Assembly (NCBI GenBank): GCA_044222065.1
Contig: JBGAOA010000002.1
Coordinates: 64,001 to 128,000 of the forward strand
Length of the DNA stretch: 64,000 nt
Source: Candidatus Eiseniibacteriota bacterium
Lineage (GTDB): Bacteria; Eisenbacteria; RBG-16-71-46
Direction of reading: 5' to 3'
Each line of letters begins with the position of its first letter. Position 1 is the first letter of the stretch. Below the pieces are notes generated by a model. That model was not told the DNA's origin, ran no database searches, and saw nothing but the letters and a program-made list of their open reading frames with translations. Both the position numbers and the translations under genes were made by a program. This document shows positions 11,014 to 35,233 of the stretch, piece by piece.

Positions 11014-13902
<2,889 letters not shown>

Positions 13903-13959: not shown

Positions 13960-14082
13960 CGCGCCGTCGTTCGTTCCCAATCACCTTCGCGCCTCGCGCG
14001 CGACTTCATAGGGATGCGTGCCATGACGCCTACGACGCCTGCGGTCACGGAGCAGCCCCGGACGTTCACTCGAACGTCCACG

Positions 14083-15126: not shown

Positions 15127-15563
15127 ACGCGCGCGGCTGGGCGCTCGCGCTCGGCCTCGCGACGCTCGCGGGCTGCTCGGCGCCGTTCAAGGGCATGCCA
15201 CCGGCGCGGACGGCGGGGTCGGAGTTCGCGCGACCGACGGCTGGCTGTCCCGAGTCGACTCACGTCGCGCGAACCGATTCGCTGCTCGCGACCGCTCCGC
15301 TCGAAGAACCGGTGGTGCGGACGAAGGTGGATCCCGTGTACCCGAACATCGCGCGGGAAGCGGGAGTCGAGGGAGTCGTCGTCGTGCGCGCGCTCGTGTG
15401 CGAGCACGGGCGTGTCATCGAGACCCGGGTGCTGCGAGGTCCGCCGATGCTGAAGGACAACGCCGAGTCGGCCGTGAAGCTCTGGCGTTTCGACCCCGCC
15501 CGCTCGAACGACGCTCCGATCCCCGCATGGACCGAAGTGGAAGTGCCCTTCACGCTCCATTGA
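15123..15563 (+). CDS. Lipoprotein with TonB C-terminal domain
   Basis: [18 protein letters not shown] lipobox followed by a TonB-C domain ([14 protein letters not shown]...VPFTLH). The start overlaps the tdh stop. Confidence 0.8.
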
Positions 15564-15579
15564 GCGAAGGATCCGACGC

Positions 15580-16788: not shown

Positions 16789-16858
16789 CCGCCGTCGTCG
16801 CGCCGCGCCCGGGCTCGAGCGCGACGCGCACTTCGAGTGTTTTGCGAGCCGCCAACGC

Positions 16859-16888
16859 TTGACCCCTTTCGAGCACGTCGGATACCTT
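16859..16888 (+). promoter_or_regulatory. Putative sigma70 promoter of gcv genes
   Basis: TTGACC-N18-TACCTT, 30 bp before TTG 16919. Confidence 0.45.
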
Positions 16889-16918
16889 GCGAGCGAAACT
16901 GCTCAGGGAGAGAGACCC

Positions 16919-18025
16919 TTGTCACCCGCTTCCACCGTCAAGAAGACGCCGTTCCACGAGTTCCACGCCGCCCTCGGCGGCAAGCTCGTGGACTTCGCCG
17001 GTTTCGAGATGCCCGTCCGCTATTCGGGGGACGTGCGCGAGCACCAGGCGGTACGCAACGCCGCCGGGCTGTTCGACATCTCCCACATGGGCGAGTTCAT
17101 CGTCCGGGGCGAGGGGGCGCTCGCGTTCCTCAACCGCGCCGTGACGAACGACGTCGGGGGACTGGCGGTCGGCCAGGCGCTCTACTCGCCGATGTGCCGG
17201 CCCGACGGCGGCATCGTGGACGACCTGCTCGTCTATCGCGCGGCCGACCGCTACATGGTGGTCGTGAACGCGAGCAACATCGCGAAGGACTTCGAGTGGC
17301 TGTCGTCGCTCAAACCCGCCGACGCGACGCTCGAGAACCACTCCGACCGCACCGCGCTGCTCGCCGTGCAGGGCCCGCGCGCGGCCGACGTCGTGCGCGC
17401 CGGAGTTCCGGCCGCGGCGCTCGACCTCGGCTACTACCGCTTCGTCGAGGGTGACATCTTCGGCGCCCCCGGCATCGTCTCGCGCACGGGGTACACGGGC
17501 GAGGACGGTTTCGAGCTGTACTTCGACGTCGCGCACGCGTCCGCCGTGTGGCGCGCGCTGTGGGACGCCGGGAAGCCGTACGGGCTCGAGCCGATCGGGC
17601 TCGGCGCGCGCGACACGCTGCGCCTCGAGATGGCGTACATGCTCTACGGCAACGACATCACGGACACGACGAGCCCGCTCGAGGCGGGACTCGGCTGGAC
17701 CGTGAAGCTGAAGAAGCCCGATTTCGTCGGGCGTGACGTGCTCGTGCGGCAGAAGGAGCAGGGACTCGCGCGCAAGCTCGTCGGCATCGAGCTGGACGGC
17801 CGCCGCGTGCCGCGTCACGGCATGCCGATCGAGACGGGCGGCCGCGTGATCGGCGAGGTGACGAGCGGCACGTTCGCGCCGAGCCTCGAGAAGCCGATCG
17901 GCATGGGGTACGTCACGTCCGAACATTCCGCGATCGGAACGGCGCTCGAGGTGCGCGCCGGTTCGACCGTGCTGCCGGCGCGCGTCGTCGCCCGGCCCTT
18001 CTACACGCGCGGCTCGCATCGCTGA
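16919..18025 (+). CDS. gcvT: Glycine cleavage system aminomethyltransferase T
   Basis: KTPFHEFH, FDISHMGE, SRTGYTGEDGFE and GLGARDTLRLE. TTG 16919 follows a GGGAGAG RBS. Confidence 0.96.
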   Translation: MSPASTVKKTPFHEFHAALGGKLVDFAGFEMPVRYSGDVREHQAVRNAAGLFDISHMGEFIVRGEGALAFLNRAVTNDVGGLAVGQALYSPMCRPDGGIVDDLLVYRAADRYMVVVNASNIAKDFEWLSSLKPADATLENHSDRTALLAVQGPRAADVVRAGVPAAALDLGYYRFVEGDIFGAPGIVSRTGYTGEDGFELYFDVAHASAVWRALWDAGKPYGLEPIGLGARDTLRLEMAYMLYGNDITDTTSPLEAGLGWTVKLKKPDFVGRDVLVRQKEQGLARKLVGIELDGRRVPRHGMPIETGGRVIGEVTSGTFAPSLEKPIGMGYVTSEHSAIGTALEVRAGSTVLPARVVARPFYTRGSHR

Positions 18026-18045
18026 GCCCTGAGGGGGAGGCTGCT

Positions 18046-18435
18046 TTGGGTTATCCGGAAGACGTCCGCTACACCCGCGATCACGAGTGGGCCCGGCTCG
18101 AGAACGGGGTCGTCACGGTGGGGATCACGAACTACGCGACCGACCAGCTCGGAGACGTCGTGTTCGTGGAACTGCCCGAAGTCGGTCGGGCGCTCGAGGC
18201 CGGCAAGGCGTTCGGCGTCGTCGAGGCCGTGAAGACGGTGAGCGATCTCTACGCGCCGCTCGCGGGCGAGGTCGTCGAGGTGAACGGGGCGCTGACCGAC
18301 AATCCGGCGACCGTGAACGGCGATCCGTACGGGGACGGCTGGATGATCCGGATCCGCGTGAAGGATGCGGGCGAGTACCAGAAGCTGCTCTCGAGCGCGG
18401 ACTACGAGAAGCACCTCGAGGAAGAGCACGCATGA
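18046..18435 (+). CDS. gcvH: Glycine cleavage system H protein
   Basis: YTRDHEW, VEAVKTVSD (lipoyl Lys) and NGDPYGDGW; GGGGAGG RBS. Confidence 0.97.
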   Translation: MGYPEDVRYTRDHEWARLENGVVTVGITNYATDQLGDVVFVELPEVGRALEAGKAFGVVEAVKTVSDLYAPLAGEVVEVNGALTDNPATVNGDPYGDGWMIRIRVKDAGEYQKLLSSADYEKHLEEEHA

Positions 18436-19772
18436 GCCAGATCGGTCTCTCGCCGTCCGAAGAGCGGCGGATGCTGGAGACGATCGGGGTGGACTCGTTC
18501 GAGCGGCTGATCGACGCGATTCCCGCCGCCGTGCGGCTGCAGAAGCCGCTCCCGATCGCCGGGCCCCTGTCCGAGATCGAGCTCCGGCGCCGCTTCGGCG
18601 CGTGGGCGAACGAGAACGCGGCCGCGAACGCCGTCTCGTTCATGGGCGGCGGTCTGTACGACCACTTCATTCCCGCGGCGCTGAACGCGGTCGCGTCGCG
18701 TTCGGAATTCGTCACCGCCTACACGCCGTACCAGCCGGAAGTCGCGCAGGGCACGCTCACCGCGATCTTCGAGTTCCAGAGCATGATCTGCGAGCTCACG
18801 GGGCTCGACGTCGCGAACGCGTCGCTGTACGACGGCGCCACGGCGGCGGTCGAAGGCGTGCTGCTCGCCCGCGCGCAGACCGGCCGCACGAAGGTCGTCG
18901 TCGCGGGCGCCGTGCACCCGCACGTCGTCGGCGTGCTTCGCACCTACCTCGGCGACGAGCACGTCGCCGTCGTCGCGGACCGCGGCGGACAGTGCGCACC
19001 CGAGGACCTGCAGTCGGCGCTGTCGAAGGACGTTGCCGCCGTGCTCTACCAGCACCCGAACTTCTTCGGCCTGCTCGAATCGCCCGCCGCGCTGCACGCG
19101 CTCGCGCACGAGTGCGGCGCGCTCGCGATCGCCTCGTGCGATCCGATCGCGCTCGCGCTGCTCGAGCCGCCGGGGCACTCGGGGGCCGACATCGTCGTGG
19201 GCGAGGGGCAGTCGCTCGGCAATCCGATCGGATTCGGCGGACCGTCGCTCGGCTTCTTCGCGTGCAAGAGCGCGCTCGTCCGGCGCATGCCGGGCCGCAT
19301 CGTCGCCGAGACCGTCGATCGCGACGGCGAACGGGGCTTCGTGCTCACGCTGCAGACGCGGGAGCAGCACATCCGGCGCGAGAAGGCGACGTCGAACATC
19401 TGCACGAACCAGGGGCTGCTCGCGCTCCGCTCGACGGTCTTCATGGGGCTCCTCGGGCGGCAGGGCATGCGCGAACTCGCCGAGCTGTGCGTCCAGAAGT
19501 CGCATCACGCCGCGACGCTCGCGGCGCGAATCCCGGGATACCGGCTCGTTCACGGCGGCCCGTTCTTCCGCGAGTTCGTGCTCGAGTGCCCGGTCGAGGC
19601 GTGGACCGTCGCGCGCGAAGCGCTCGCCGACGGCATCCTGGCCGGGGTGTACCTCGGCCGCTTCCGGCCGGAATGGAAGCGCTGGCTGCTCGTCGCCGTG
19701 ACCGAACAGCGCAGCATCGAAGAGATCGAGCGCTGGGCCGCGGCCCTGCGCCGCGCGGGAGGCGGACGATGA
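18432..19772 (+). CDS. gcvPA: Glycine dehydrogenase subunit 1
   Basis: TAYTPYQPEVAQG, NASLYDGA and TREQHIRREKATSNICTNQ. ATG 18432 overlaps the gcvH stop. Confidence 0.96.
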   Translation: MSQIGLSPSEERRMLETIGVDSFERLIDAIPAAVRLQKPLPIAGPLSEIELRRRFGAWANENAAANAVSFMGGGLYDHFIPAALNAVASRSEFVTAYTPYQPEVAQGTLTAIFEFQSMICELTGLDVANASLYDGATAAVEGVLLARAQTGRTKVVVAGAVHPHVVGVLRTYLGDEHVAVVADRGGQCAPEDLQSALSKDVAAVLYQHPNFFGLLESPAALHALAHECGALAIASCDPIALALLEPPGHSGADIVVGEGQSLGNPIGFGGPSLGFFACKSALVRRMPGRIVAETVDRDGERGFVLTLQTREQHIRREKATSNICTNQGLLALRSTVFMGLLGRQGMRELAELCVQKSHHAATLAARIPGYRLVHGGPFFREFVLECPVEAWTVAREALADGILAGVYLGRFRPEWKRWLLVAVTEQRSIEEIERWAAALRRAGGGR

Positions 19773-21274
19773 AGCTCGAACGCCGGCTGCTGATCGAACA
19801 GGGCGGCGAGGGCCACCGCGGTCCCGAACTGCCGCCGTGCGACGTGCCGCAGCGCCCGCTCGCGGAACTGCTGCCGGGCGCGAAGCTGCGCGAGTCGCTC
19901 GCGTTCCCCGAGGTGAGCGAGCCCGAGGTCGTGCGCCACTTCCTCGAGCTTTCGACGTTGAATCACCACGTGGACAAGGGCTTCTACCCGCTCGGCTCGT
20001 GCACGATGAAGCACAATCCGAAGATCAACGACGAGATCGCATCGCTGCCCGGGTTCGCGCTTGCGCACCCGCTCGCGAGTGACGACGTGAGCCAGGGCGC
20101 GCTGCGCGTGATCTGGGAGCTGCAGAACGCGCTCGCCGCGATCACCGGTTTCGCCGCCGTGACGGCGCAGCCCGCCGCGGGCGCGCACGGCGAGATGACG
20201 GGGCTCATGCTGATCCGCGCGTGGCACCGCTCGCGCGGCGAGGGGGAGAAGCGCCGCCGCGTGCTCGTGCCCGATTCGGCGCACGGCACGAACCCGGCGA
20301 GCGTGAACCTGCTCGGCTGGGAGACGCAGACGGTCGCTTCCGACGAGCACGGCCACGTGAACCTGGACGCGCTCGAGCGTGCGCTCGACGACACGGTCGC
20401 CGCCGTCATGTTCACGGTGCCGAACACGCTCGGCGTGTTCGAGCGCGAGATCGTGGACGTGACCCGGCTCGCGCACGCGGCCGGCGCGCAGTGCTACATG
20501 GACGGCGCGAACCTGAACGCGCTCGTCGGCCTGCTGCGGCCGGGCGACCTCGGCTTCGACGTCATGCACATCAACGTGCACAAGACGTTCTCGACTCCGC
20601 ACGGCGGCGGCGGGCCCGGCGCCGGACCGGTCGCGGTCGCGAAGCACCTCGAGCCGTTCCTGCCGATCCCGGTCGTCGAGGAGTCCGGCGGTCTGCTGCG
20701 CCGCGTCTGGGACCGCGAGCGTTCGATCGGACGCGTGCACGGATGGCACGGCAACTTCGGCATCCTCGTGCGCGCGCTCGCCTACATCCTGTCGAACGGC
20801 GCGCCGGGGCTCGCGAACGTGAGCCGCACGGCGATCCTGAACGCGAACTACCTCATGCGGCGCCTCGCCGGGACTTACGAACTCCCGCACGCCGAACACT
20901 GCATGCACGAGTGCGTGCTGTCCGGGCGGCCGCTCAAGAAGCACGGCATCAAGACGCTCGACGTGGCGAAGCGGCTGCTCGACTTCGGCGTCCACGCGCC
21001 GACGGTGTACTTCCCGCTCATCGTGGAAGAGGCGCTCATGATCGAGCCGACCGAGACGGAGACGCTGGATCGGCTGGACCACTTCGCCGAGACGATGGAG
21101 CAGATCGCGCGCGAGGCCGCCGAGAATCCCCAGCTCCTCAAGGACGCGCCGCACACGACGCCGAACCGCCGGCTCGACGAGGGCCGCGCGGCGCGCGAGC
21201 TCAAGCTCCGCTGGAGCGCGGACGCCGCGCGCCCGAGCGGCAGCGCCGCGAACGCGGAACCGACGCTGAAGTGA
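19769..21274 (+). CDS. gcvPB: Glycine dehydrogenase subunit 2
   Basis: YPLGSCTMKHNP, QPAAGAHGE, SAHGTNPAS, HINVHKTFSTPHGGGGPG and EPTETE. Confidence 0.96.
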   Translation: MKLERRLLIEQGGEGHRGPELPPCDVPQRPLAELLPGAKLRESLAFPEVSEPEVVRHFLELSTLNHHVDKGFYPLGSCTMKHNPKINDEIASLPGFALAHPLASDDVSQGALRVIWELQNALAAITGFAAVTAQPAAGAHGEMTGLMLIRAWHRSRGEGEKRRRVLVPDSAHGTNPASVNLLGWETQTVASDEHGHVNLDALERALDDTVAAVMFTVPNTLGVFEREIVDVTRLAHAAGAQCYMDGANLNALVGLLRPGDLGFDVMHINVHKTFSTPHGGGGPGAGPVAVAKHLEPFLPIPVVEESGGLLRRVWDRERSIGRVHGWHGNFGILVRALAYILSNGAPGLANVSRTAILNANYLMRRLAGTYELPHAEHCMHECVLSGRPLKKHGIKTLDVAKRLLDFGVHAPTVYFPLIVEEALMIEPTETETLDRLDHFAETMEQIAREAAENPQLLKDAPHTTPNRRLDEGRAARELKLRWSADAARPSGSAANAEPTLK

Positions 21275-21723
21275 AGGGCCCGGAAGTGGACGCCGGCGCA
21301 ACCGGGGCCGACGCCGCTCTCGAGTGGCGCGTCGTGCCGTGGCGCGAGCGCCCCGCGCGCGCCGCCGTCGGCGTGCTGCTCGCGGCCGGGTTGTGCGCGG
21401 CGGTCGCGTCGCAGCGGCTCGGATTCGTGCCGACGCTCGCGCTCTCCGTCGCGTCGGTCGCCGCCGTCGCGCCGCTGTTCGCTTCCGCGCGCTGCCGGAT
21501 CGACGGCGACGGGCCGGGCCGGCGCGGCGCGCTCGGCTGGGAGCGGCGCCGGTGGACGGACGTGCGCCGCGCGCGGCTCACCGCGCGCGCGCTCGTGCTC
21601 TCGCCCTACGCGCGCCCCCACTGGCTCGACGCCTACCGCGCGCTCGTGCTGCCGCTGCCCGCCGGCGCCGACGCGGGCTGGCGCGACCGGCTGCGCGCGA
21701 CGCTGGAGCGACATGGCCTCTGA
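21271..21723 (+). CDS. Hypothetical membrane protein (2 TM plus possible PH-like domain)
   Basis: GTG overlaps the gcvPB stop. Two hydrophobic helices are followed by a beta-rich segment (RRRWTDVRRA...VLSPY). Confidence 0.7.
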   Translation: MKGPEVDAGATGADAALEWRVVPWRERPARAAVGVLLAAGLCAAVASQRLGFVPTLALSVASVAAVAPLFASARCRIDGDGPGRRGALGWERRRWTDVRRARLTARALVLSPYARPHWLDAYRALVLPLPAGADAGWRDRLRATLERHGL

Positions 21724-23830
21724 CGCACGGACGCTCGCGGCCGACGACCGCGCGCTGATCGAGCGCGTGGCTGCCCGGATCGCGGAGCTGCGCCTCGAGG
21801 TGCCGGCGCTCCTCACGATCGAGAGCGGGCGCCCGCTGTCGCTGCTCGCGAGCCAGACGATGCTGTTCTTCGAGCCGATCGTGCTCGCGCTGCTCCGGCT
21901 CGACTACCGCTTCGCGCGCCTCGTCGAGGACCGTGGCGCGCTCGAGGCGCTGTCGTGCGCGATCGAGGCCGCCGTCGAGGCGCGAGGCGGCGCGGCGCGC
22001 CGCGCGGGGGGGACGGGCGTGAGCCTCGATCCGAACGCGATCCGCTCGATCCTCGCGACCGACTGCGGCTCGACGACGACCAAGGCGATCCTGATCGAGC
22101 GCGGCGACGACGGTTACCGTCTCGTCGTACGCGGCGAGGCGCCCACGACGGTCGAGGCCCCGCACGAGGACGTGACGCGCGGCGTGCTCAATGCGATTCG
22201 CGAGATCGAGGAGCTGGCGGGGCGGCGGATCCTCGACGGTGAGCGCATCGTGTCGCCCGCGAACGGCGACGTGGGCGTGGACCTGTACCTCTCGACCTCG
22301 AGCGCGGGCGGCGGGCTCCAGATGATGGTGTCGGGCCTCGTGCTGCAGATGACCGGCGAGAGCGCGCAGCGTGCCGCGCTCGGCGCCGGCGCGATCGTGA
22401 TGGACGTGATCGCCCTCAACGACGGCCGTCGGCCGCACGAGAAGATCCGCCGGCTGCGGCAGCTGCGTCCCGACATGATTCTCATGTCCGGCGGCACGGA
22501 CGGCGGCGACGTGAAGCGCGTGGCCGAGATGGCCGAACTGCTCGTGGCCGCCGATCCGCGCGCCCGGCTCGGCGCCGGCTACGAGATGCCCCTGATCTAC
22601 GCGGGCAACCGCGACGCCGCGCCGGTCGTGAGCGACAATCTCGCGCGCCGGACGGCGCTCAGCGTCGTGCCGAACCTGCGGCCGTCGCTCGAGCGCGAGA
22701 ACCTGAAGCCCGCGCGCGACGCGATCCACGACCTCTTCATGGAGCACGTGATGGCGCACGCGCCGGGCTACCGGCGGCTGCGCGAGTGGTCGCCCGTGCC
22801 GATCATGCCGACGCCGGGCGCGGTCGGCCTGCTGATCGAGAAGGTCGCGCGGCGCGACGGCCTCGCGGTCGTCGGCGTGGACATCGGCGGCGCGACGACG
22901 GACGTGTTCTCGGTGTTCCAGGGCGTGTTCAACCGCACGGTGTCCGCGAACCTCGGAATGAGCTACTCGGTGTCGAACGTCATGGCGGAGGCCGGCATCG
23001 AGAACATCCTGCGCTGGGTGCCGTTCGCCGTGGACGAGGCGGAACTGCGGAACCGGATCAAGAACAAGATGATCCGCCCGACGACGATCCCGCACACGCT
23101 CGAGGACCTCGTGATCGAGCAGGCGATCTCGCGCGAGGCGCTGCGACTCGCGCTCGAACAGCACAAGGCGCTCGCGGTCGGGCTCAAGGGCGTGCAGACC
23201 GAGCGCACGATCTCGGACATCGTGGCGCAGGAAGAGAGCGGCGCCTCGCTCGTGAACCTGCTCGACCTCGGGCTCGTCGTGGGTTCGGGCGGCGTGCTGT
23301 CGCACGCCCCGCGGCGGGCGCAGGCCGCGGCGATGATGGTGGACGCGTTCCTGCCCGAGGGGCTGACGCAGCTCGCCGTGGACAGCATCTTCATGATGCC
23401 GCAGCTCGGCGTGCTCTCGACCGTGCACGAGGAGGCGGCGGCGCAGGTGTTCGAGAAGGACTGCCTGATCCGGCTGGGCGCCGTGCTCGCGCCGATCGGG
23501 ACGTCGCGACCCGGCCAGCCGTGCGTGTCGGTCGAGGTCGCCGTGCCGGGGCACGTCGCGACCGAACGCAAGGTCGCGTTCGGCGAGATGGCGCTGCTGC
23601 CGCTGCCGCCGACCGGCACCGCGCGCGTCACCGCCGTGCCCGACCGCGCGTTCGACCTCGGTCTCGGGCGCGGTCGCCCGCTCACGGCCGACGTTCCGGG
23701 CGGCGTCGTCGGCCTGATCGTGGACGCCCGCGGCCGCCGGCCGTTCACGCTCCCGGACGCGCCCGCCGCGCGGATCGCGAAGCTGCGCGAGTGGAATCGC
23801 GCGCTCGGCCTCTACCCGCGGGAGGTGTGA
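21713..23830 (+). CDS. GlmL (glutamate mutase L)-like ASKHA/actin-fold ATPase; the first ~100 aa are probably a separate small gene
   Basis: Phosphate-1 TDCGSTTTK, SSAGGGL, GGTDGG, MPTPGAV, phosphate-2 VDIGGATTDV, RTVSANLGM and GSGGVLSHAP. A GTGA at 22019-22022 looks like a coupled stop/start, making 22019 the likely true start. Confidence 0.85.
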   Translation: MASDARTLAADDRALIERVAARIAELRLEVPALLTIESGRPLSLLASQTMLFFEPIVLALLRLDYRFARLVEDRGALEALSCAIEAAVEARGGAARRAGGTGVSLDPNAIRSILATDCGSTTTKAILIERGDDGYRLVVRGEAPTTVEAPHEDVTRGVLNAIREIEELAGRRILDGERIVSPANGDVGVDLYLSTSSAGGGLQMMVSGLVLQMTGESAQRAALGAGAIVMDVIALNDGRRPHEKIRRLRQLRPDMILMSGGTDGGDVKRVAEMAELLVAADPRARLGAGYEMPLIYAGNRDAAPVVSDNLARRTALSVVPNLRPSLERENLKPARDAIHDLFMEHVMAHAPGYRRLREWSPVPIMPTPGAVGLLIEKVARRDGLAVVGVDIGGATTDVFSVFQGVFNRTVSANLGMSYSVSNVMAEAGIENILRWVPFAVDEAELRNRIKNKMIRPTTIPHTLEDLVIEQAISREALRLALEQHKALAVGLKGVQTERTISDIVAQEESGASLVNLLDLGLVVGSGGVLSHAPRRAQAAAMMVDAFLPEGLTQLAVDSIFMMPQLGVLSTVHEEAAAQVFEKDCLIRLGAVLAPIGTSRPGQPCVSVEVAVPGHVATERKVAFGEMALLPLPPTGTARVTAVPDRAFDLGLGRGRPLTADVPGGVVGLIVDARGRRPFTLPDAPAARIAKLREWNRALGLYPREV

Positions 23831-23831
23831 C

Positions 23832-24956
23832 GTGTCCGCCACCTACACGCCGGGCCTGCGCGTCACCGCCTCCGCACTCCTGCGTCGCGAGCGGCGGCTG
23901 CCGCTCAAGGGCGAAGTCCTCGTGAGCGCGGGGCAGGGCGTCGAGGCCGGAACGGTCGTCGCGCGCACCGACCTGCCGGGCAACGTGCAGACGGTGAACC
24001 TCGCGTCGCGGTTGTCGCTGGATCCGGCACGCGTCGAGAGCGCGCTCACGAAGCGCGTCGGCGAGTCGGTGCGGAAGGGCGAGACGCTCGCGGAGTCGAA
24101 GAGCCTGTTCGGGCTCGTCAAGAACTCGGTCGCCGCTCCCGCGGACGGCGTCATCGAGAGCGCCTCGCACGTCACGGGGCAGCTGATCCTGCGCGAGCCG
24201 CCGATCCCGGTCGAGGTCAACGCCTACGTGCGCGGCGTCGTCGTCGAGGTGCTGCCCGGGGAAGGCGTCGTCGTCGAGACGCACGGCGCGTTCCTGCAGG
24301 GAATCTTCGGCGTGGGCGGCGAGGCGTGCGGCCCGGTGAAGATCGCGGTGGACGATCCCGGGACCGATCTCACCCCCGACCGCATCACCGGCGAGCACCG
24401 CGGCGCCGTCGTCGTCGGCGGCGCGAAGATCTCGTTCGACGCGATCGCACGCGCGCGCGACGTCGGCGCGGCCGCGATCGTCGCCGGCGGACTCGACGAT
24501 GCCGATCTCAAGCGGCTGCTCGGCCGCGACCTCGGCGTCGCGATCACCGGGTCCGAGGACCTGGGCGTGACCGTGATCGTCACCGAGGGCTTCGGCCGCA
24601 TCCCGATGGCGGCCCGCGCCTGGAAGCTGCTGCGCGGCTGCGAGGGCCGCGACGCGTCCGTGAGCGGCGCGACGCAGATCCGAGCGGGCGTGATGCGCCC
24701 CGAGCTCGTGATTCCGGATCCGGCCACGAGCGCGCCCTCGGGCGAGACGGACGCGATCCCGGGCCTCGCGATCGGCGCCCAGCTGCGCGTCATCCGCGAG
24801 CCGTACTTCGGGCGAATCGGCACGGTCGTCGCGCTGCCGGCGGAGCTCCAGCCGCTCGAGACGGAGGCGCACGTGCGCGTGCTCGTGGTGGAGTTCGCCG
24901 ACGGCGGCGGCCGCGTCGTCGTGCCGCGGGCGAACGTCGAACTCATCTCGTCGTGA
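23832..24956 (+). CDS. Hypothetical soluble protein with barrel-sandwich hybrid (lipoyl/biotinyl-like) motifs and KOW-like C-terminus
   Basis: VSAGQGVEAGTVVA and VGESVRKGETLA...VAAPADGVIE motifs, TEGFG, and C-terminal LRVIREPYFGRIGTV...VPRANVE; GGAGG RBS. Confidence 0.8.
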   Translation: MSATYTPGLRVTASALLRRERRLPLKGEVLVSAGQGVEAGTVVARTDLPGNVQTVNLASRLSLDPARVESALTKRVGESVRKGETLAESKSLFGLVKNSVAAPADGVIESASHVTGQLILREPPIPVEVNAYVRGVVVEVLPGEGVVVETHGAFLQGIFGVGGEACGPVKIAVDDPGTDLTPDRITGEHRGAVVVGGAKISFDAIARARDVGAAAIVAGGLDDADLKRLLGRDLGVAITGSEDLGVTVIVTEGFGRIPMAARAWKLLRGCEGRDASVSGATQIRAGVMRPELVIPDPATSAPSGETDAIPGLAIGAQLRVIREPYFGRIGTVVALPAELQPLETEAHVRVLVVEFADGGGRVVVPRANVELISS

Positions 24957-24979
24957 GCGCCGCGGCGGACGCATTGTCG

Positions 24980-25009
24980 TTGACTTCGATTCCGAGCGGT
25001 TGCTAGCTT
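24980..25009 (+). promoter_or_regulatory. Putative internal sigma70 promoter
   Basis: TTGACT-N18-TAGCTT with a TG extension, upstream of the membrane-protein genes. Confidence 0.5.
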
Positions 25010-25083
25010 CGCCGCGATTCGCGCGGTCGCAAAGGAGTGCGGACGGGGCCTCGGCCCCGGAAAGTGAGGTGCCGTTGCGAGGG

Positions 25084-26313
25084 ATGGCGACGCGAAGGCC
25101 CGTCGGCCGCTGCATCCTCGCCGTGCTCGCGGCCGTCGTCGCGACGTGCGCCGCGGGTCCCGTCGGCGCCGAGGAGGCCCCGCCCGACGGCGGTGCGTTC
25201 TCTCCCGCACCCGCGGTCGCCGATACGACCCCCGCCGCTCCGCGCCCGGCCTCGGGACTCGTCGCGACCGACGTGCCGAACGACGCAGGCCGCGGCATCG
25301 CGCTGCGCTGGCGGCTCTCGCCGGACGACTCGCTCGGGCTGGTCGTGCGCTACGACGTCGAGCGCTCGGAGGCGCCGAGCGGCCCGTGGGCGCTCGTGGA
25401 CTCGGTGGACGCCGGCGCGAACGAGCGCGTGGACCAGTCGGTGCGGCGGAACACGGAGTACTTCTATCGCATCACGACGATCGGTCCCGGCGGGCGCGCG
25501 CCCGGACGCAGCGTGACTGGGCCCGTTCGCGCGCGCTCGTCCTGGATCAACACGACGCGCTGGAGCGTTCTCGCCCTGATGGTCGCGTTCTTCGCCTTCG
25601 TCCTCTACTACATCGCGAGCGCCCAGGCGGGGAAGAAGCCGTTCGTGCGGCGCATTCCCGGAGTGGACGCGATCGAGGAGGCGATCGGGCGCGCGACCGA
25701 GATGGGGCGCCCGGTGCTCTACGTGCCGGGCATCCTCGACATCGACGACATCCAGACCGTCGCGGGCCTCGTCATCCTGGAGTCGGTCGCGCGGCTCACG
25801 GCCAAGTACGAGACCCCGATCACCGTGCCCGTCAGCTACCCGATCCCGTTCACGATCGCCGAAGAGATGGTGAAGGGCGGCTACCTGCACGCGGGCCGTC
25901 CCGACGCGTATCCGGGCGACAGCGTACGCTTCGTCTCGCCGGAGCAGTTCGCGTACGTCGCCGCCGTCACGGGCATCATGCTGCGCGACCGTCCCGCCGC
26001 CCACATCTTCATGGGTGCGTTCTACGGCGAGTCCCTGATGCTCGCCGAGACCGGGTTCTCGACCGGCGCGATCCAGGTCGCGGGCACCGCGAACGTTCAC
26101 CAGCTGCCGTTCTTCGTCGTGGCCTGCGACTACACGCTCATCGGCGAAGAGCTGTTCGCCGCGAGCGCGTACCTGTCGGGCGAGCCTAAGCTCGTCGGCG
26201 GCCTCAAGGGCGCCGACCTCATGAAGCTCGTCGTCATCGCCATCATCGTCATCGGCTGCATCCTCGAGACGCTGCACGTCCACGGTCTCACGACGTGGAT
26301 GGCGACCCAGTAG
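25084..26313 (+). CDS. Fibronectin type III plus DUF6754-like membrane protein
   Basis: Signal peptide, FN3 (ATDVPNDAG..LRW...YFYRI), TM, then RRIPGVDAIEEAIGRATEMGRPVL domain, LIGEELFAASAYL and a C-terminal TM. Start uncertain (25000-25084). Confidence 0.8.
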   Translation: MATRRPVGRCILAVLAAVVATCAAGPVGAEEAPPDGGAFSPAPAVADTTPAAPRPASGLVATDVPNDAGRGIALRWRLSPDDSLGLVVRYDVERSEAPSGPWALVDSVDAGANERVDQSVRRNTEYFYRITTIGPGGRAPGRSVTGPVRARSSWINTTRWSVLALMVAFFAFVLYYIASAQAGKKPFVRRIPGVDAIEEAIGRATEMGRPVLYVPGILDIDDIQTVAGLVILESVARLTAKYETPITVPVSYPIPFTIAEEMVKGGYLHAGRPDAYPGDSVRFVSPEQFAYVAAVTGIMLRDRPAAHIFMGAFYGESLMLAETGFSTGAIQVAGTANVHQLPFFVVACDYTLIGEELFAASAYLSGEPKLVGGLKGADLMKLVVIAIIVIGCILETLHVHGLTTWMATQ

Positions 26314-26323
26314 GAGCGCGCGC

Positions 26324-26974
26324 GTGAAACGGGAAGTGCCGCTGTTCATCACCGCCGTGATCGGGCTGTTCATGATCCTGTCGTTCTTCGTGCCGCACGA
26401 GTGGGTGAGCGTGCCCGCGGACTTCCTGCAGCTGTGCGCGGTGATCGCGGTCGCGTTCGGCTACGTGCTCGGCGGCGCGAACGTGCTGCGCGTGAACTTC
26501 GACGGCATCTCGAAGCGCGAGCCCGGCTGGCCCTTCAAGCTCGTGCTCGTGCTCGCGCTCCTCACGACGGTCGCGGTCGGTGCGATGGAGGGCGAGGGGT
26601 TCCTGAATCCCGGCACGCGCAGCAAGTGGATCTACGACAACGTCTATTCGCCGATGAGCGCGACGATGTTCGCGCTGCTCGCGTTCTTCATCGCCTCGGC
26701 CGCGTTCCGCGCGTTCCGCATCCGCACGCTCGAGGCCGGCTTCCTCGCCGCGGCCGCGCTGATCGTGATGCTGGGGCGCGTGCCGATCGGGAACGTCATG
26801 ACGTCGTGGCTGCCCGAGCCGCTGCGGCTCCCCGTCGTGCAGGAGTGGATCATGGAGATCCCGCAGAACGCCTCGAAGCGCGCGATCCTCATGGGCGCGG
26901 CGCTCGGCGTCATGGCGACGGGGCTGCGCGTGATCCTCGGCATCGAGCGTTCCTACCTGAGCGGGGAGGACTGA
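26324..26974 (+). CDS. Polytopic membrane protein of unknown function
   Basis: About 6 TM helices with TMFALLAFFIASAAFRAFRIR and C-terminal LRVILGIER; AGGAG RBS. Confidence 0.8.
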   Translation: MKREVPLFITAVIGLFMILSFFVPHEWVSVPADFLQLCAVIAVAFGYVLGGANVLRVNFDGISKREPGWPFKLVLVLALLTTVAVGAMEGEGFLNPGTRSKWIYDNVYSPMSATMFALLAFFIASAAFRAFRIRTLEAGFLAAAALIVMLGRVPIGNVMTSWLPEPLRLPVVQEWIMEIPQNASKRAILMGAALGVMATGLRVILGIERSYLSGED

Positions 26975-26975
26975 C

Positions 26976-27818
26976 GTGAAGCTGCTGCACTCGCTCGAGC
27001 GCGTGGACCGGCGCTGGCTGTTCCTGCTGATGGGACTGCTCGTACTGCTGCCGCTGCTCTTCCCGCTCAGCCTGCCGATCTTCGTCTCGCAGCCGACGCA
27101 GGGCTTCTACGACGCGATCGCGAAGATCCCCGACGGCTCCACGGTGCTGTTCTCGTGCGACTACGATCCCGGCTCGATCCCCGAGATGGTGCCGATGACG
27201 CGCTCGGCGCTGCGCCAGATGATGCGCAAACGCTGCAAGCTCGTCGTCACGGTGCTGTGGCCCGGCGGGCCGGGGCTCGTGGACCTCGTGATCCGCGACC
27301 TGCTCGCCGAGGAGTTCCCGGACCGGACGTACGGCGTGGACTGGGTGAACCTCGGCTACAAGTCGGGCAACGAGGCCGTGATGGTGCTCATGGGGCAGGG
27401 CATCGCGAACGCGTTCCCGAAGGACTACCGCGGCAACGACGTCAACGCGCTGCCGCTCATGCGCACGGTGCGCGACTACTCGAGCTTCCCGATCCTCGTG
27501 AACATCTCGTCGGGCTACCCGGGCACGAAGGAGTGGGTCCAGCAGGTGCAGGCGCGATTCCACCTGCCGATGGTCGCGGGCGTCACCGCCGTGAGCGCGC
27601 CGGAGTTCTATCCGTACCTCCAGTCGGGCCAGCTGCTCGGACTGCTCGGCGGCATGGCGGGCGCGGCCGAGTACGAGAAGCTCGTGGGCGACCTGCCCGG
27701 CCCCGGCACGGCGCAGCGCGGCATGGACGCGCAGTCGCTCGCGCACGTGTTCGTGGCGCTCTGCATCCTGCTCGGCAACGTCGTTCAGTGGTCGAGGCGG
27801 CGGGGGGCCGGCTCGTGA
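26976..27818 (+). CDS. Membrane-anchored alpha/beta protein of unknown function
   Basis: N-terminal TM, soluble domain (DYDPGS, YGVDWVNLGYK, YPYLQSGQ..GLLGGMAGAAEYE), MDAQS and a C-terminal TM. Confidence 0.8.
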   Translation: MKLLHSLERVDRRWLFLLMGLLVLLPLLFPLSLPIFVSQPTQGFYDAIAKIPDGSTVLFSCDYDPGSIPEMVPMTRSALRQMMRKRCKLVVTVLWPGGPGLVDLVIRDLLAEEFPDRTYGVDWVNLGYKSGNEAVMVLMGQGIANAFPKDYRGNDVNALPLMRTVRDYSSFPILVNISSGYPGTKEWVQQVQARFHLPMVAGVTAVSAPEFYPYLQSGQLLGLLGGMAGAAEYEKLVGDLPGPGTAQRGMDAQSLAHVFVALCILLGNVVQWSRRRGAGS

Positions 27819-28501
27819 GTCTGCACGTCTCGGCCGACCTCGGCATCTGGTGCGGCGCGCTGCTGACGCTGTGCGTGTTCAGCTTCCTCTACAAGGACAA
27901 TCCGCTCTACAAATTCGCCGAGCACCTGTTCGTGGGCGTGTCGGCCGGCTACTACATCATCCTGAACTTCTGGACCGTGATCTGGCCGAACCTGCTGCAG
28001 CCGCTCGCAAGGTCGTTCGCGGGCCGCGGCGACACGGCGCGCACGGGCATGTTCGCCGCCGAACTCGGCGACTACCGCGGACTGCTGCTCGTGCCGGCGC
28101 TGCTCGGACTGCTGCTGCTCACGCGGCTGTTCGGGAAGATCGGGTGGCTCTCGCGCTGGTCGCTCGCCGTCATCATCGGCGTGTACGCCGGCATCAAGAC
28201 GACGGGCTTCGCGCAGGGCGACTTCGTCGCGCAGCTGCAGGCGAGCCTGCAGCCGCTCTGGACCGGACAGCTCGGCTCGAGCGTGAGCGCGATCCTGTTC
28301 ACGATCGGGCTCATCACGTCGCTGCTGTTCTTCTTCTTCAGCCGCGAGCACCGGGGCGGCCTCGGCGTGCTGTCGCGCGTCGGCATGCTGTTCCTCATGG
28401 TGGGCTTCGGCGCGGGGTACGGCTACACCGTGATGTCGCGGGTGTCGCTGCTGATCGGCCGGTTCCAGTTCCTGATCGAGCAGTGGCTCGGCCTGCGCTG
28501 A
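27815..28501 (+). CDS. Polytopic membrane protein of unknown function
   Basis: GTG overlaps the upstream stop. About 6 TM helices with SFLYKDNPLYKFAEHLFVG and FGAGYGYTVMSR. Confidence 0.8.
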   Translation: MSLHVSADLGIWCGALLTLCVFSFLYKDNPLYKFAEHLFVGVSAGYYIILNFWTVIWPNLLQPLARSFAGRGDTARTGMFAAELGDYRGLLLVPALLGLLLLTRLFGKIGWLSRWSLAVIIGVYAGIKTTGFAQGDFVAQLQASLQPLWTGQLGSSVSAILFTIGLITSLLFFFFSREHRGGLGVLSRVGMLFLMVGFGAGYGYTVMSRVSLLIGRFQFLIEQWLGLR

Positions 28502-28532: not shown

Positions 28533-29279
28533 GTGCTGAACCTGTGGTGCGACGACGGCCACCCGGCGCGCGAGAACATGCGCCGCGACGCGGCGCTGCT
28601 CGCGGCGGCCGAGGACGGCGCGGCGCCGGTGCTGCGGCTCTTCCGCTTCGATCCGCCGGGCCTCACGCTCGGGCACGCGCAGGACCCCGCGGCCGAACTC
28701 GACCTCGAGGCGTGCGAGCGCGACGGCGTCGAGTGGGCCGTCCGCCCGACGGGCGGGCGCGCGATCTTCCACGAGCACGAGTGGACGTACGCGTTCGCGT
28801 CCGCCGCCGACGACCCGGAGTGGGGCGGCGACCTCGCGGTCGCGTACGAGAAGGTGTCGCGGCTCGTGCGCGACTCGCTCGCGGATCTCGGCGTGCCGGT
28901 CGCGTTCGCGGGCGGACATCGCGGGCGGCTCGAAGGCGACCGCGCGAGCGCGGCCTGCTTCGCCTCGACCGCGCGCCACGAACTCGTCGTCGCGGGGCGC
29001 AAGCTCGCCGGGAGCGCGCAGCGACGGACGAGCCGCGCGTACCTGCAGCAGGGCAGCGTGCTGCTCGGCCCGGGGCACCTGCGGCTCGCGGAATTCCTGG
29101 CGCTGCCCGACGCGCGACGGGCAGCGGCGCGCGATGCGCTCGCGCGGTCGGCCACGGACGCCGGGGCGTGGATCCCGCCGGCGACGCCGCTCGGGCGCTG
29201 GGCCGATGCGATCGAGCGCGTGCGGCCCGGCGTTCATCGCGAGAACGGCGACGCCGGCCGACGGTGGTTGACCCTGTGA
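28533..29279 (+). CDS. Lipoate-protein ligase A / LipM-like octanoyltransferase
   Basis: NMRRDAALL, RPTGGRAIFH, CF, and GRKLAGSAQRR...QQGS motifs; located at the end of the gcv cluster. Confidence 0.88.
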   Translation: MLNLWCDDGHPARENMRRDAALLAAAEDGAAPVLRLFRFDPPGLTLGHAQDPAAELDLEACERDGVEWAVRPTGGRAIFHEHEWTYAFASAADDPEWGGDLAVAYEKVSRLVRDSLADLGVPVAFAGGHRGRLEGDRASAACFASTARHELVVAGRKLAGSAQRRTSRAYLQQGSVLLGPGHLRLAEFLALPDARRAAARDALARSATDAGAWIPPATPLGRWADAIERVRPGVHRENGDAGRRWLTL

Positions 29280-29297
29280 GAACGCGATTCCTATACT
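29268..29297 (+). promoter_or_regulatory. Putative sigma70 promoter of the Opp/Dpp operon
   Basis: TTGACC-N18-TATACT, 45 bp upstream of ATG 29342. Confidence 0.6.
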
Positions 29298-29341
29298 GCC
29301 GCGCACTTTCGCCGCCGCACCGCTCCACGGGAGACTTCCAC

Positions 29342-31165
29342 ATGCTCCGCCTCGTGCCGGGCCGGTTCCGTCGCGCGATCCTGATTCCGCTGCTCGCCCT
29401 CGCCGGTTGCGGTGGCCCGGCGCCTTCTCGCGACGCCTGGGTGGATCCCTATCCGCTGCCGGCCGACACGATGACCGTGGCCGCGCCCGAACTCGGGGTG
29501 CACGGCGGGCGGTTCGTGATCGCGGCGACGTCGAGCCCGAAGACCTTCAACCCCGTGATGGGGAGCGAGTCGTCGACGAACGACGTCACGTCTCGGCTGT
29601 TCGTCGGACTCGCGGACTGGGACTACCGCACGCATCAGGACTACGGCGTGCTCGCGAAGTCGTGGGAGCGGAGCCCCGACGGACTGACCTACACGTTCCA
29701 CCTGCGGCGAGGCGCGGCGTTCTCGGACGGACACGCGCTGACCTCCGACGACGTGCTGTTCACCGCTGCGGTGACGCTCGACTCGACGGTCGGCGCGTCG
29801 CTGCGCGCGTCGCTCCAGTCCGCCGGACGGCCGTTCGTCTTCGAGGCGCCCGACTCGTACACCGTGGTCGTGCGGCTCGCGGGCCCGCACCGGCTCGCGA
29901 TCGCCGCGATCGGGTCGCTGCGGGTTCTGCCGAAGCACCGACTCGAGGCCGCGTGGAAGGAGGGCCGCTTCCCCTCGTCCTACGGCACCGACACGCCGCC
30001 CGAGAGTCTCGTCACGAGCGGGCCGTGGATCCTGCGCTCCTACCTGCCGCAGGAGCGCACGGTCCTCGCACGAAACCCGTACTGGCTCGGCGTGGACGCG
30101 CGCGGAAACCGGCTGCCGTACCTCGACGAGGTCGTGCTCGTCGTGGTGCCCGATCAGGCCGCGGCGGCGCTGAAGTTCCAGTCGGGCGAGGTCGACGGAC
30201 TCGACAACGTGAAGAACGAGGACTACTCGACGTACGAGCAGGGGCAGGAGAAGGGCGACTACCATCTCTACGACCTCGGCCCGGGACTCAACACGTCGTT
30301 CCTGTGGTTCAACCTGCGGCTCGCCGAGGAATCGGCACCGGGGCGGAAGGCGGGGTCGCCCTACGCCGGGGAGGTCCCGTACTCGTGGTTCTCGCGCGTC
30401 GACTTCCGGCGCGCCGTCTCGCACGCGATCGATCGCGACGCGATCATCCGCGGTCCGTACTTCGGAGACGCCGTCAAGAACTGGGCGCACATCACGCCCG
30501 GCAACCCCGTGTGGTCGCTGACCGATGTCGTGCACTACGACTACGACCCCGAGCGCGCCAGGACGCTGCTCGCCGGGCTCGGCTGGAAGGACACCGACGG
30601 CGACGGACTGCTCGAAGACGAGCACGGCCGCACGATCCGCTTCACGATCAAGACGAACGGCGACAACAAGACGCGCATGGACGTCCTGACGATGATCCAC
30701 GACGACCTGCGCAAGGTCGGCGTGGACGCGGTCCCCGCGGGCAGCGATTTCAACACGCTGACGACGAACTTCCGGACCGACTTCCAGTACGAGGCGGCGC
30801 TGCTCGGGCTCGGTTCGGCCGTGCCGCCCGATCCCGGCATCGGCATGAACTTCTGGCGCTCCTCCGGCGTCATCCACTACTGGGCCCCGAAGCAGAAGCG
30901 CCCGATGAACGCGATCGAGGCGCGGCTCGACTCGCTCGCGGACGCGCACATCGCCGCGCTCGACGACGCGACGGCGCGCGAGACGTACCGGGCGCTCCAG
31001 ACCACGGTCAACGAGAACGCGTTCGTGATCTACCTGCCGAGCCAGGTCGTGCGCATCCCGGTCCGGAACGGCTTCGGGAACCTCTCGCCGAACGTGGTGC
31101 CGCACCGCCTGCTCTGGAACATCGACCAGGTGTTCGTGAAGCCGGGCGGCCGCCGCCGGTCCTGA
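29342..31165 (+). CDS. Peptide/nickel ABC transporter substrate-binding lipoprotein (family 5)
   Basis: Lipobox LALAG-C, PKTFNP, LAKSWE.SPDGLTYTFHLR.G..FSDG and FRRAVSHAIDR. Confidence 0.92.
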   Translation: MLRLVPGRFRRAILIPLLALAGCGGPAPSRDAWVDPYPLPADTMTVAAPELGVHGGRFVIAATSSPKTFNPVMGSESSTNDVTSRLFVGLADWDYRTHQDYGVLAKSWERSPDGLTYTFHLRRGAAFSDGHALTSDDVLFTAAVTLDSTVGASLRASLQSAGRPFVFEAPDSYTVVVRLAGPHRLAIAAIGSLRVLPKHRLEAAWKEGRFPSSYGTDTPPESLVTSGPWILRSYLPQERTVLARNPYWLGVDARGNRLPYLDEVVLVVVPDQAAAALKFQSGEVDGLDNVKNEDYSTYEQGQEKGDYHLYDLGPGLNTSFLWFNLRLAEESAPGRKAGSPYAGEVPYSWFSRVDFRRAVSHAIDRDAIIRGPYFGDAVKNWAHITPGNPVWSLTDVVHYDYDPERARTLLAGLGWKDTDGDGLLEDEHGRTIRFTIKTNGDNKTRMDVLTMIHDDLRKVGVDAVPAGSDFNTLTTNFRTDFQYEAALLGLGSAVPPDPGIGMNFWRSSGVIHYWAPKQKRPMNAIEARLDSLADAHIAALDDATARETYRALQTTVNENAFVIYLPSQVVRIPVRNGFGNLSPNVVPHRLLWNIDQVFVKPGGRRRS

Positions 31166-31177
31166 GACGCGGCGCGC

Positions 31178-32136
31178 ATGCGCACGTTCGTCCTGCGCCG
31201 TGTCCTCCAGGTCGTACCCCTGCTGTTCGGACTCACCGCGATCACCTTCCTGCTCGTCGCGCTCGCGCCCGGTGACTTCCTGAACACGCTCGCCGAGAAC
31301 CCGGCGATCACGCCGCAGGTGCTCGAGTCCATGCGCCGCAATTTCGGTCTCGACCGGCCGGTGTGGGTGCAGTACGGGCTCTACCTGTGGAATCTGCTGC
31401 ACGGCGACTTCGGTCAGTCGTTCTCGCGTCACCAGCCGGTGTTCGCGGTGCTGCGCGAGGGGCTCGCGAATACGCTGCTGCTCGCGGGCGCGGCCGCGAT
31501 CGTGACGTGGGGGCTCGCGATCCCGCTCGGAGTGATCGCCGCCGTGCGGCAGAACACGGTCGTGGACCGCTCGCTCGGCGTTCTCGCCTACGTCTGGCTG
31601 TCCGTGCCCGAGGTCCTGTCCGGGCTGCTGCTGCTGTTGTTCGCGGCGCGAACCGGCTGGTTCCCGACCGGCGGCATGCACTCGCTCGACTTCGAGCGGC
31701 TCGGGCCGCTCGCGCGCGCGGGGGACCTGCTCCACCATCTCGCGCTGCCGGCGATCGCCGTGGGGCTCGTGCCGCTCGCGAGCCGCATGCGCCAAACGCG
31801 CGCGAACCTGCTCGACGTGCTGCTCGACTACGTGACGACGGCGCGCGCGAAGGGGCTCGATGAGCGGACCGTGGTCGTCAGCACGCGCTCCGCAACGCGC
31901 TCAACCCGCTCGTCACGATGTTCGGGTTCACGCTCGGCTCGCTCGTCTCGGGTTCGCTCGTCGCCGAGATCGTGTTCTCGTGGCCCGGCCTCGGTCGCAT
32001 CACGTACGAGGCGATCCTCACGCAGGACCTGTACCTCGTGGTCGGGGCGGCTCATGGCCGCGTGCGTGCTCGTCGCGGCAACCTCGTCGCCGACGTCCTG
32101 CTCGCGGTCGCCGACCCGCGGATCCGCCATGACTGA
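31178..32136 (+). CDS. Peptide ABC permease (OppB/DppB), frameshifted
   Basis: FGLDRP..QY and DYVTTARAKGL are followed by a frame change near 31880 (GTC AG CAC = missing base of KHALRNA), continuing SWPGLG...DPRIRHD*. Further indels near 32050. Confidence 0.85.

Positions 32137-34234: not shown

Positions 34235-34242
<8 letters not shown>
33223..34242 (+). CDS. Peptide ABC ATP-binding protein (OppD/DppD)
   Basis: [31 protein letters not shown] and GCRFHPRC. Confidence 0.95.

Positions 34243-35233
<991 letters not shown>

Follow-up and report, generated by a model that had tools for sequence, protein, structure and literature searches.

An actin-fold ATPase gene module and a four-gene membrane cassette beside the glycine cleavage genes of Candidatus Eiseniibacteriota: a widespread and apparently undescribed system

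Organization of the locus

The window studied here, a stretch of 64,000 nucleotides of contig JBGAOA010000002.1 from a Candidatus Eiseniibacteriota bacterium, contains eight co-directional plus-strand genes, termed A to H (Table 1), which fill 7.2 kb from gcvPB (ending at 21274) to a gene of the lipoate ligase family (28533-29279; PF21948, 1.5e-25). Very probably, these eight genes specify one ATP-coupled membrane machine that is unrelated to B12-dependent mutases. A first-pass annotation had counted seven or eight tightly packed genes in this place; packing and strand are as described, and the number is eight, as an open reading frame of 705 residues (21713-23830) joins the small gene B in frame to the ATPase gene C. 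Of three overlapping stop/start codons reported at the same time, those at 21271 and 27815 exist (GTGA), whereas the junction at 21713 is an overlap of 11 nucleotides and not a codon overlap. Genes C and D as well as F and G are spaced by 1 nucleotide each. Pfam families over cut-off could be assigned only to C (PF13941) and E (DUF6754), and to none of A, B, D, F, G and H.

Table 1. Genes A to H, with positions in the window and predicted features of their products
Gene	Position	Strand	Reading
A	21271..21723	+	two transmembrane helices and a bacterial PH-like (bPH/YcxB-like) domain; putative accessory part of the ATPase module
B	21713..22022 (end approximate)	+	helical protein of ~100 residues, no known family
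C	22019..23830	+	long-form GlmL/MutL-like ASKHA (actin/Hsp70-fold) predicted ATPase, 603 residues
D	23832..24956	+	soluble; nested barrel-sandwich hybrid, swivelling beta/beta/alpha and KOW/SH3 domains
E	25000..26313	+	signal-peptide-like start, variable outer domain, DUF6754 (transmembrane helix, cytoplasmic Rossmann-like domain, transmembrane helix)
F	26324..26974	+	six transmembrane helices, both termini predicted inside (hydropathy and Lys/Arg bias)
G	26976..27818	+	transmembrane helix, outer alpha/beta domain, transmembrane helix; termini predicted inside
H	27815..28501	+	six transmembrane helices, N terminus predicted outside, opposite to F

The boundary between B and C was set by comparison with relatives. 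The 120 best homologues listed for C are about 603 residues long, this protein excepted, which places the start of C at about 22019, and in the 56 other loci compared B and C never share one open reading frame but are separate in every case. No indel is listed for the B-C junction in contigs from three DNA sequencing runs. Within gene B, at 21898-21907 of the window, two residues present in relatives are missing, and one contig from run X3 carries 6 extra nucleotides inside B. The in-frame joint seen here is either an assembly slip or a strain-specific fusion. From the RNA run X15, which came without a silent-region control, short contigs with ~99% identity cover D to H.

Co-occurrence, gene order and modular design

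We profiled 121 genomes of the own phylum, Eisenbacteria, and 151 genomes of a second phylum that was reached via locus L044; the latter include an unpublished genome (G234) that adds one row to the system-negative group. In Eisenbacteria, PF13941 is present over its cut-off of 27 bits in 108 genomes and DUF6754 in 107, both together in 105 and neither in 11, and four of the five discordant genomes are assemblies of 230-720 contigs. With both markers in 105/121 genomes, the system belongs to the core of this phylum. In the second phylum, PF13941 occurs in 41 and DUF6754 in 40 of the 151 genomes, 40 of which have both, and in the one genome where the markers disagree the only GlmL is a short one, encoded beside GlmE. 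The system is also found in records titled Zixibacteria, WOR-3, Cloacimonadota, Fermentibacteria, Poribacteria, Coatesbacteria and Marinimicrobia, and clustering at 50% identity gives 2,191 clusters related to DUF6754. The system is absent from all 14 control genomes, E. coli included, which may explain why it has remained unstudied.

Gene order is conserved as well. Loci were picked by similarity to E, a few of them being fetched twice, and the cassette was scored only where at least 2.7 kb followed the E gene. Under these premises E is followed by F, G and H in this order in 247 of 258 cases; among the remaining 11, F is split in four, E is split or doubled in one and no partner is in view for six. 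In 53 of 60 loci the gene directly after C is D, whose companion B is close to C in 48/54 and A is close to the long ATPase gene in 39/54, including loci devoid of gcv genes. The usual order in the second phylum is E-F-G-H-A-B-C-D, again without gcv. As A and B accompany C in most loci and in this gcv-free arrangement, we regard them as parts of the system, a membership that the first-pass annotation had missed. Since different phyla share the same gene order and content, the arrangement in the window is not due to chance.

A tie to threonine and glycine catabolism, which had been suggested on the basis of the neighbouring genes, was not supported. Genes for glycine cleavage adjoin the long ATPase gene in 23 of the 54 loci with enough upstream DNA, including Eisenbacteria, Fermentibacteria and one WOR-3 genome, but in 0/26 loci of the second phylum, and most stand-alone cassettes have unrelated neighbours. 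The link is therefore one of gene order in some lineages.

Equally overlooked at first was the modular design of the system, in which many cassettes go along with one ATPase module. There are up to nine DUF6754 matches per genome versus, as a rule, one or two full-length long or fused ATPases. Several loci have three cassettes in tandem behind one C-D pair, and where genomes were selected by their E gene, all five encode a single long ATPase, which in four of them lies away from that cassette. Cassettes from the same genome are 39-53% identical and the nearest neighbour of a cassette was found in the same genome in 0/109 cases, while the four subunits diverge together (r 0.81-0.88 versus 0.15-0.19 in within-genome shuffles). 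Judged by this divergence, the paralogous cassettes are old. Natural fusions of C and D were detected in 12 loci from 11 Eisenbacteria genomes that carry 4-9 copies of DUF6754. From D they retain the swivel domain and two hybrid units, attached to the core of C, but not the KOW domain. They are not accompanied by a cassette in the fetched stretch, and imply that C and D are functionally tied. The fused proteins (L090-L101, e.g., L092:4002-6608) are second copies of about 870-900 residues; five of them follow a gene for a UPF0047 (YjbQ) protein, four with a radical SAM gene in front, while L093 has only UPF0047.

Heterogeneity also marks the 59 genes scanned beside stand-alone cassettes and the 88 scanned beside long or fused C genes, with scattered genes for GT-C glycosyltransferases, nucleotidyltransferases, TonB and outer-membrane proteins next to the cassettes. 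A peptide or amino acid substrate, hinted at by an Opp-type operon downstream of the locus, was not supported elsewhere, as only one M16 peptidase pair was found among the 59 cassette neighbours. In a group of Zixibacteria-like loci (L028, L030, L037, L039, L050, L177, L185, L189 and L190) the cassette, mostly without an FN3-like part, is embedded in a housekeeping run comprising genes for phosphotransferase system (PTS) enzyme I, a PGI/SIS protein, E-F-G-H, a nucleotidyltransferase and MetK-like and SahH-like proteins, the last two assigned by eye. Two loci deviate by inversion, which may reflect rearrangement or misassembly: the second cassette with D at L071:14545-19109 is inverted with respect to the rest of the operon, and in L106 (G082:C1) A-B-E-F-G-H are inverted against C-D.

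The ATPase and its independence from B12-dependent mutases

Protein C matches PF13941 with 416.6 bits (1.6e-124) and contains both phosphate motifs noticed in the first-pass annotation, DCGSTTTK and DIGGATTD. It is 60-84% identical to 19 homologues across phyla. The phosphate-1, phosphate-2 and adenosine-type motifs vary little or not at all among 20 long forms, and each of the 12 fused forms has them as well; with these motifs, which define ASKHA proteins, C is a predicted ATPase. Its closest characterized relatives are GlmL/MutL, from operons of glutamate (methylaspartate) mutase, and the Or-4 proteins; their ASKHA core is homologous and has the motifs of C, and nine short forms aligned with C are 26-35% identical to it in this core. 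Unlike these, C is about 140 residues longer, with a C-terminal extension of about 120 residues, it has fixed partners in A, B, D and the membrane cassette, and it stays below the cut-offs of the three NCBIfam models concerned (NF040745, 216 of 475 bits; NF040744, 206 of 600; TIGR01319, 158 of 204). In a tree of 94 rows, calculated by a quick method and containing long branches, the long, fused and short forms are each set apart by a branch, with support values of 95, 76 and 100, respectively.

The own genome (G000, 94% complete) encodes one C and one DUF6754 protein. A profile search of this genome yielded neither GlmE nor a lysine/ornithine aminomutase, and its four B12-binding matches read as the small subunit of methylmalonyl-CoA mutase, MetH and two radical SAM proteins. 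Among all 121 Eisenbacteria genomes, neither GlmE (six weak partial matches) nor PF09043 was found over cut-off, though both models score beside short GlmL forms; for PF09043, the positive control consisted of the neighbours of such short forms, as there was none among the 14 control genomes. The second phylum has both long and short GlmL forms. When the neighbours of 10 of the 11 short-form loci were scanned, GlmE was present in six, OraE/OraS in one and other genes of the ornithine pathway in three, whereas no mutase occurred among the scanned neighbours of the long forms. Methylmalonyl-CoA mutase is not the target of C either, since in the second phylum 15 of the 40 genomes with the system do not have this mutase, and 109 of the 111 genomes without the system do.

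Profile scores and tree thus place C within PF13941 but outside the GlmL and Or-4 functional families. Had the ATPase strictly co-occurred with a B12-dependent mutase, the idea of a dedicated multi-subunit system of ATPase and membrane proteins put forward at the outset would have failed; co-occurrence, conserved order and the absence of mutases (C in 108/121 genomes, GlmE in 0/121) instead bear it out. PMC4682846 calls MutL/GlmL a reactivating chaperone and cites work on dehydratases. For annotation, the consequence is that many proteins labelled glutamate mutase L in these phyla are unrelated to that enzyme.

Proteins A, B and D

Pfam did not yield a match for the own copy of A. Among 20 homologues, bPH_6 was recognized in three (best 5.8e-6) and YcxB weakly in four. 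For B, 22 members were searched and nothing was found in Pfam at E<0.06. Tandem arrays of two to five divergent genes are inserted between H and A in four loci (L147:3534-7081, L149:1471-6165, L153:13661-18323 and L157:4073-5982). By eye, their products consist of transmembrane helices and a PH-like C-terminal domain; they match gene A weakly (E 0.02-0.4) and do not belong to any Pfam family.

A predicted model of D (pLDDT 85.5) contains nested hybrid domains, a swivelling beta/beta/alpha domain and a KOW domain. VIA-align comparisons related it to the His domain of enzyme I (Z 9.0, root-mean-square deviation 2.7, 106 residues aligned), RraA (Z 8.9-9.5), KOW domains (Z 8.6) and the hybrid domains of RnfC and NqrA (Z 7.8 and 7.3). 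In the ESM Atlas, D retrieved only its own unnamed clusters, commonly from Chloroflexota or Planctomycetota. The tip of the hairpin is hydrophobic, with an aromatic-Gly pair that is invariant in 60/60 proteins. Several functions were considered for D and rejected. A biotin or lipoyl carrier, including one of the Na+-pumping decarboxylase type, is contradicted by the hairpin lysine, which is found in only 39 of the 60 proteins. A phosphocarrier as in phosphoenolpyruvate-utilizing enzymes or the PTS would need a conserved histidine, and no His column exceeds 60% in the 60 D proteins. The stretch SGAT resembles the flavin mononucleotide (FMN) attachment motif of Nqr and Rnf; it often reads NGAT and D has no export signal, so we do not consider it a site of FMN attachment.

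The membrane cassette E-F-G-H

Protein E is a clear member of DUF6754 (PF20539, 4.6e-112), in agreement with the first reading of the locus as encoding an FN3 plus DUF6754-like protein; the FN3 part was not recovered by Pfam in the own E, for which an FN3-like domain is suggested by the residue pattern and by fn3 matches in homologues. The outer domain of E is variable and can be FN3 or a BamB-like beta-propeller (fn3 matches in 3 of 56 longer homologues scanned). The DUF6754 part was modelled with a pLDDT of 92.3 as a transmembrane helix, a six-stranded Rossmann-like domain and a second transmembrane helix. VIA-align gave generic Rossmann matches, with a sirtuin as the best (Z 10.0, root-mean-square deviation 3.8, 142 residues aligned) and ties between sirtuin/DHS-like, RCK, SDR, GT-B and transhydrogenase dIII domains; because these are ties, E was not assigned to any of the families. 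Foldseek did not return a match for E at E<=0.001. A relationship of E to the beta subunit of dehydratase reactivase, considered as a further candidate, received no support among the 50 fold matches listed.

Six-helix proteins were correctly recognized at first in F and H, while the description of the other membrane subunits had to be corrected in that both E and G consist of an alpha/beta domain between two transmembrane helices. Neither F nor H has a family or a solved relative; their Pfam matches are weak and scattered, with no ECF or ABC permease family recurring consistently, and G has no consistent match in Pfam, in the PDB or to a named ESM Atlas cluster. Profile searches of the PDB with C to H did not detect a relative (best NusG KOW, E 0.048, and BiP, E 0.26), and all pairwise hhalign comparisons of C to H were without significant result.

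Topology was predicted from hydropathy and Lys/Arg bias in 83 and 248 homologues. The bias is opposite for E versus G and for F versus H, except that one end of the sixth transmembrane helix breaks the pattern in each of F and H. The Rossmann-like domain of E is placed inside on account of this bias, the variable N-terminal parts and an extension that some homologues have after the second transmembrane helix; the reverse bias puts the domain of G outside. E is the most conserved membrane subunit, and the presumed inner face is better conserved than the outer one, with 36% of domain columns at least 90% conserved in E versus 11% in G. Conserved polar residues lie in or at the membrane in H (E36, T18, S23, S43, T205, R209), G (Q253, H257, N268) and F (T114, S125, R186). 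A cysteine conserved to at least 85% does not exist in F, G or H of 248 cassettes.

Coevolution was analyzed with 238 E-F-G-H cassettes at an effective depth of 165, at which most inter-chain pairs are unreliable. It recovered contacts that fit the predicted strand-helix order of E. Between F and H a parallel helix ladder emerged (F74/78/82 in transmembrane helix 3 with H34/38/42 in transmembrane helix 2; minimum z 6.1, the next of 552,304 reaching 3.2), which fits the opposite orientation of the two proteins. The top-ranking inter-chain pair, F68-G128, conflicts with the topology, is probably phylogenetic noise and was discarded. With the elements of G assigned by eye, the contact maps of G and E are similar at the level of elements (Spearman 0.29, permutation p 0.024), and G probably has the same fold as the domain of E. 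A pseudo-symmetric cassette is, in our view, a supported inference and not a result.

Comparison with known systems

One energising module that serves several unlinked membrane modules is a feature of group II energy-coupling factor (ECF) transporters and of ABC importers with shared ATPases. The present system differs in that the ATPase is of the actin-fold type and each module is a full set of four genes, with globular domains for both sides of the membrane. No ABC family matched any of A to H in Pfam or NCBIfam. Rnf and Nqr complexes have an antiparallel pair of six-helix subunits, single-domain subunits on both faces and a Cys-ligated Fe-S centre between the two six-helix subunits. D is similar to their soluble subunit in having a hybrid domain. 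Unlike Rnf and Nqr, the system described here includes an ATPase and has neither flavin nor Fe-S subunits, and its F, G and H proteins are free of conserved cysteines. By the features tested, it is not an ABC or ECF transporter, an Rnf/Nqr complex, a PTS or a decarboxylase pump.

The nearest other Pfam families of C are those of the ATPase subunits of hydantoinase A, oxoprolinase and acetone carboxylase (PF01968 and PF05378; 9.3e-5 and 6.1e-4, both below cut-off). By analogy C may be kinase-like. Unlike in the hydantoinase-type enzymes, the C genes are not accompanied by a hydantoinase B partner among the scanned neighbours. Another parallel exists with glycerol/diol dehydratase reactivase, as C and D give a similar pairing of an ATPase with a swivel domain; the swivel domain of D and the swiveling domain of the reactivase presumably share a fold class. 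In the reactivase, the Hsp70-like ATPase domain works together with this swiveling domain (PMC7674605). In contrast to the reactivase, C and D have no B12 enzyme as a target and are joined by a membrane cassette, and the 50 fold matches listed for D or E do not include a reactivase or dehydratase chain.

We did not find any description of DUF6754 or of the cluster in the literature, most subscription papers and supplements lying outside the search, and the part of PMC11515920 available contains nothing on these genes. The system is real, widespread and apparently undescribed.

A possible ATP-driven translocator

How such a machine could work may be pictured as follows. E, F, G and H would form one inner-membrane unit of about 16 transmembrane helices, with an antiparallel F/H core that is capped inside by the Rossmann-like domain of E and outside by the alpha/beta domain of G, while the variable outer domain of E would serve as a tether or capture arm. 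The shared energising module would comprise C and D in the cytoplasm, B, and A with its PH-like domain and membrane anchor, and would dock on the conserved inner face, i.e., on the domain of E and the inner loops of F and H. ATP would then drive a polar solute across the membrane, either mechanically or via phosphorylation of the cargo, and different paralogous cassettes would serve different cargos. Inverted-topology pairs are characteristic of transporters, and so is the sharing of an ATPase module. The shared ATPase module, the old specialized units, the inverted pairs, the conserved inner face and the polar residues in the membrane together agree best with a modular ATP-driven solute translocator of a so far undescribed type, in which several cassettes draw on one energising module, and we put its probability at roughly 45%; transport itself, its direction and its substrate are guesses. 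Phosphorylation of the cargo rather than pushing is conceivable because the nearest other families of C are of the hydantoinase A type. ATPases of that type phosphorylate small substrates. Only tentatively do we go further and propose a new class of primary active transporters, in which the actin-fold module A-B-C-D is common to up to nine ancient, cargo-specific units of pseudo-symmetric, antiparallel E-F/G-H architecture, capped on both sides and belonging to the core physiology of many uncultured phyla. The primary transporters known so far are powered by ATPases of the ABC, P-type or rotary kind. If the proposal is true, an actin-fold ATPase that drives a membrane unit would represent a new principle of energy coupling.

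Several points speak against a translocator. None of the subunits matches a known transporter family or a solved structure in Pfam and PDB searches, and the contact of C or D with the membrane unit is inferred. The cassette neighbourhoods do not feature a recurring catabolic enzyme or regulator, as would be expected for nutrient importers. Near-universal presence within the phylum suits a housekeeping role in the cell envelope just as well, and the genomes inside one phylum are kin, so that the co-occurrence counts overstate independence. Moreover, hhalign scores for E with G and F with H did not exceed those of reversed or block-shuffled controls, and in a global test of inter-chain sides the proposed orientation beat random ones only with 40-60 pairs (p 0.044 and 0.017), a model with E flipped scoring slightly better.

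Among the alternatives, an envelope-building or protein- or lipid-handling machine ranks first but is rather unlikely. In such a machine, C would act in the manner of PilM, FtsA, MreB or a chaperone and remodel or tension a membrane unit that the FN3 or propeller domains of E anchor to the wall or outer layers and that moves or assembles a macromolecule such as a surface protein, glycopolymer or lipid. The lack of catabolic or regulatory neighbours is its main argument, and the scattered genes named above, the core-gene behaviour and very high conservation of C, the outer domains of E, the expansion of A-like genes with transmembrane and PH-like parts inside the operon and the invariant hydrophobic hairpin tip of D all agree with it. 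What it accommodates less well are the hydantoinase A-type rather than MreB, FtsA or PilM relatives of C, the very old and complete paralogous cassettes, which fit cargo specialization, and the absence of recurring secretin, pilin or shape genes nearby. The hybrid domain of D, the antiparallel F/H and opposed E/G pairs, and the invariant H E36 and G H257 together with several Ser, Thr, Asn and Gln residues in the membrane could also point to an ATP-coupled ion pump or energy-conserving complex of Rnf/Nqr-like layout without redox cofactors. This is improbable, given that hybrid domains are generic, that F, G and H are devoid of conserved cysteines and that a single ion would scarcely call for as many as nine divergent cassettes in one genome. 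Slightly less plausible again is a transmembrane signalling device, in which G would sense a ligand outside, the RCK-like domain of E would relay the signal and C-D with its KOW domain would act as an ATP-dependent switch. The ties of the E domain with RCK/TrkA-N regulatory domains (Z 9.5-8.9), the NusG/Spt5-like KOW domain at the end of D and the many paralogous cassettes are in line with signalling, yet a conserved core of 12 transmembrane helices with polar residues exceeds what signalling needs, the 12 C-D fusions do without KOW and no output regulator recurs nearby.

The two remaining explanations tie the system to particular enzymes. A partner of glycine cleavage or of threonine and glycine catabolism, e.g., an importer of glycine, threonine or lipoate or a lipoyl relay, would account for gcv adjacency in less than half of the loci and for tdh, kbl and the lipoate ligase-family gene flanking the cluster here, but is very improbable in view of the gcv-free loci of the second phylum, the extra cassettes elsewhere and the variable lysine at the tip of D. 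Hardly credible, finally, is that C reactivates a B12-dependent mutase or that the unit handles cobalamin, with the membrane genes being a B12 importer or mere neighbours. C does share its Pfam family with GlmL, the pairing with a swivel domain recalls the dehydratase reactivase, and the own genome encodes the methylmalonyl-CoA mutase small subunit and MetH; nevertheless, the missing glutamate mutase, the inverse distribution of methylmalonyl-CoA mutase and the separate branches of long and short GlmL forms mean that reactivation of a mutase by C is largely refuted.

Flanking genes

Upstream of the locus, positions 14014-21274 of the window hold an ordinary run for the catabolism of threonine to glycine, i.e., tdh, a gene for a small TonB_C protein (15123-15563), kbl, gcvT, gcvH, gcvPA and gcvPB. 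Farther upstream are uvrA (11014-13902) and genes for a TolC-like outer membrane protein, an HlyD-type adaptor and two MacB-like permeases (2513-8390). Downstream, the lipoate ligase-family gene is followed by an Opp/Dpp-type ABC operon (28533-35233; SBP_bac_5, 1.5e-74), in which the open reading frame 31178-33226 resembles two permeases joined by frameshifts and thereby suggests indel errors in the assembly. Genes for a bacterial microcompartment shell protein (PF00936) and an aldehyde dehydrogenase (PF00171) at 35782-38165 mark the start of a microcompartment locus.

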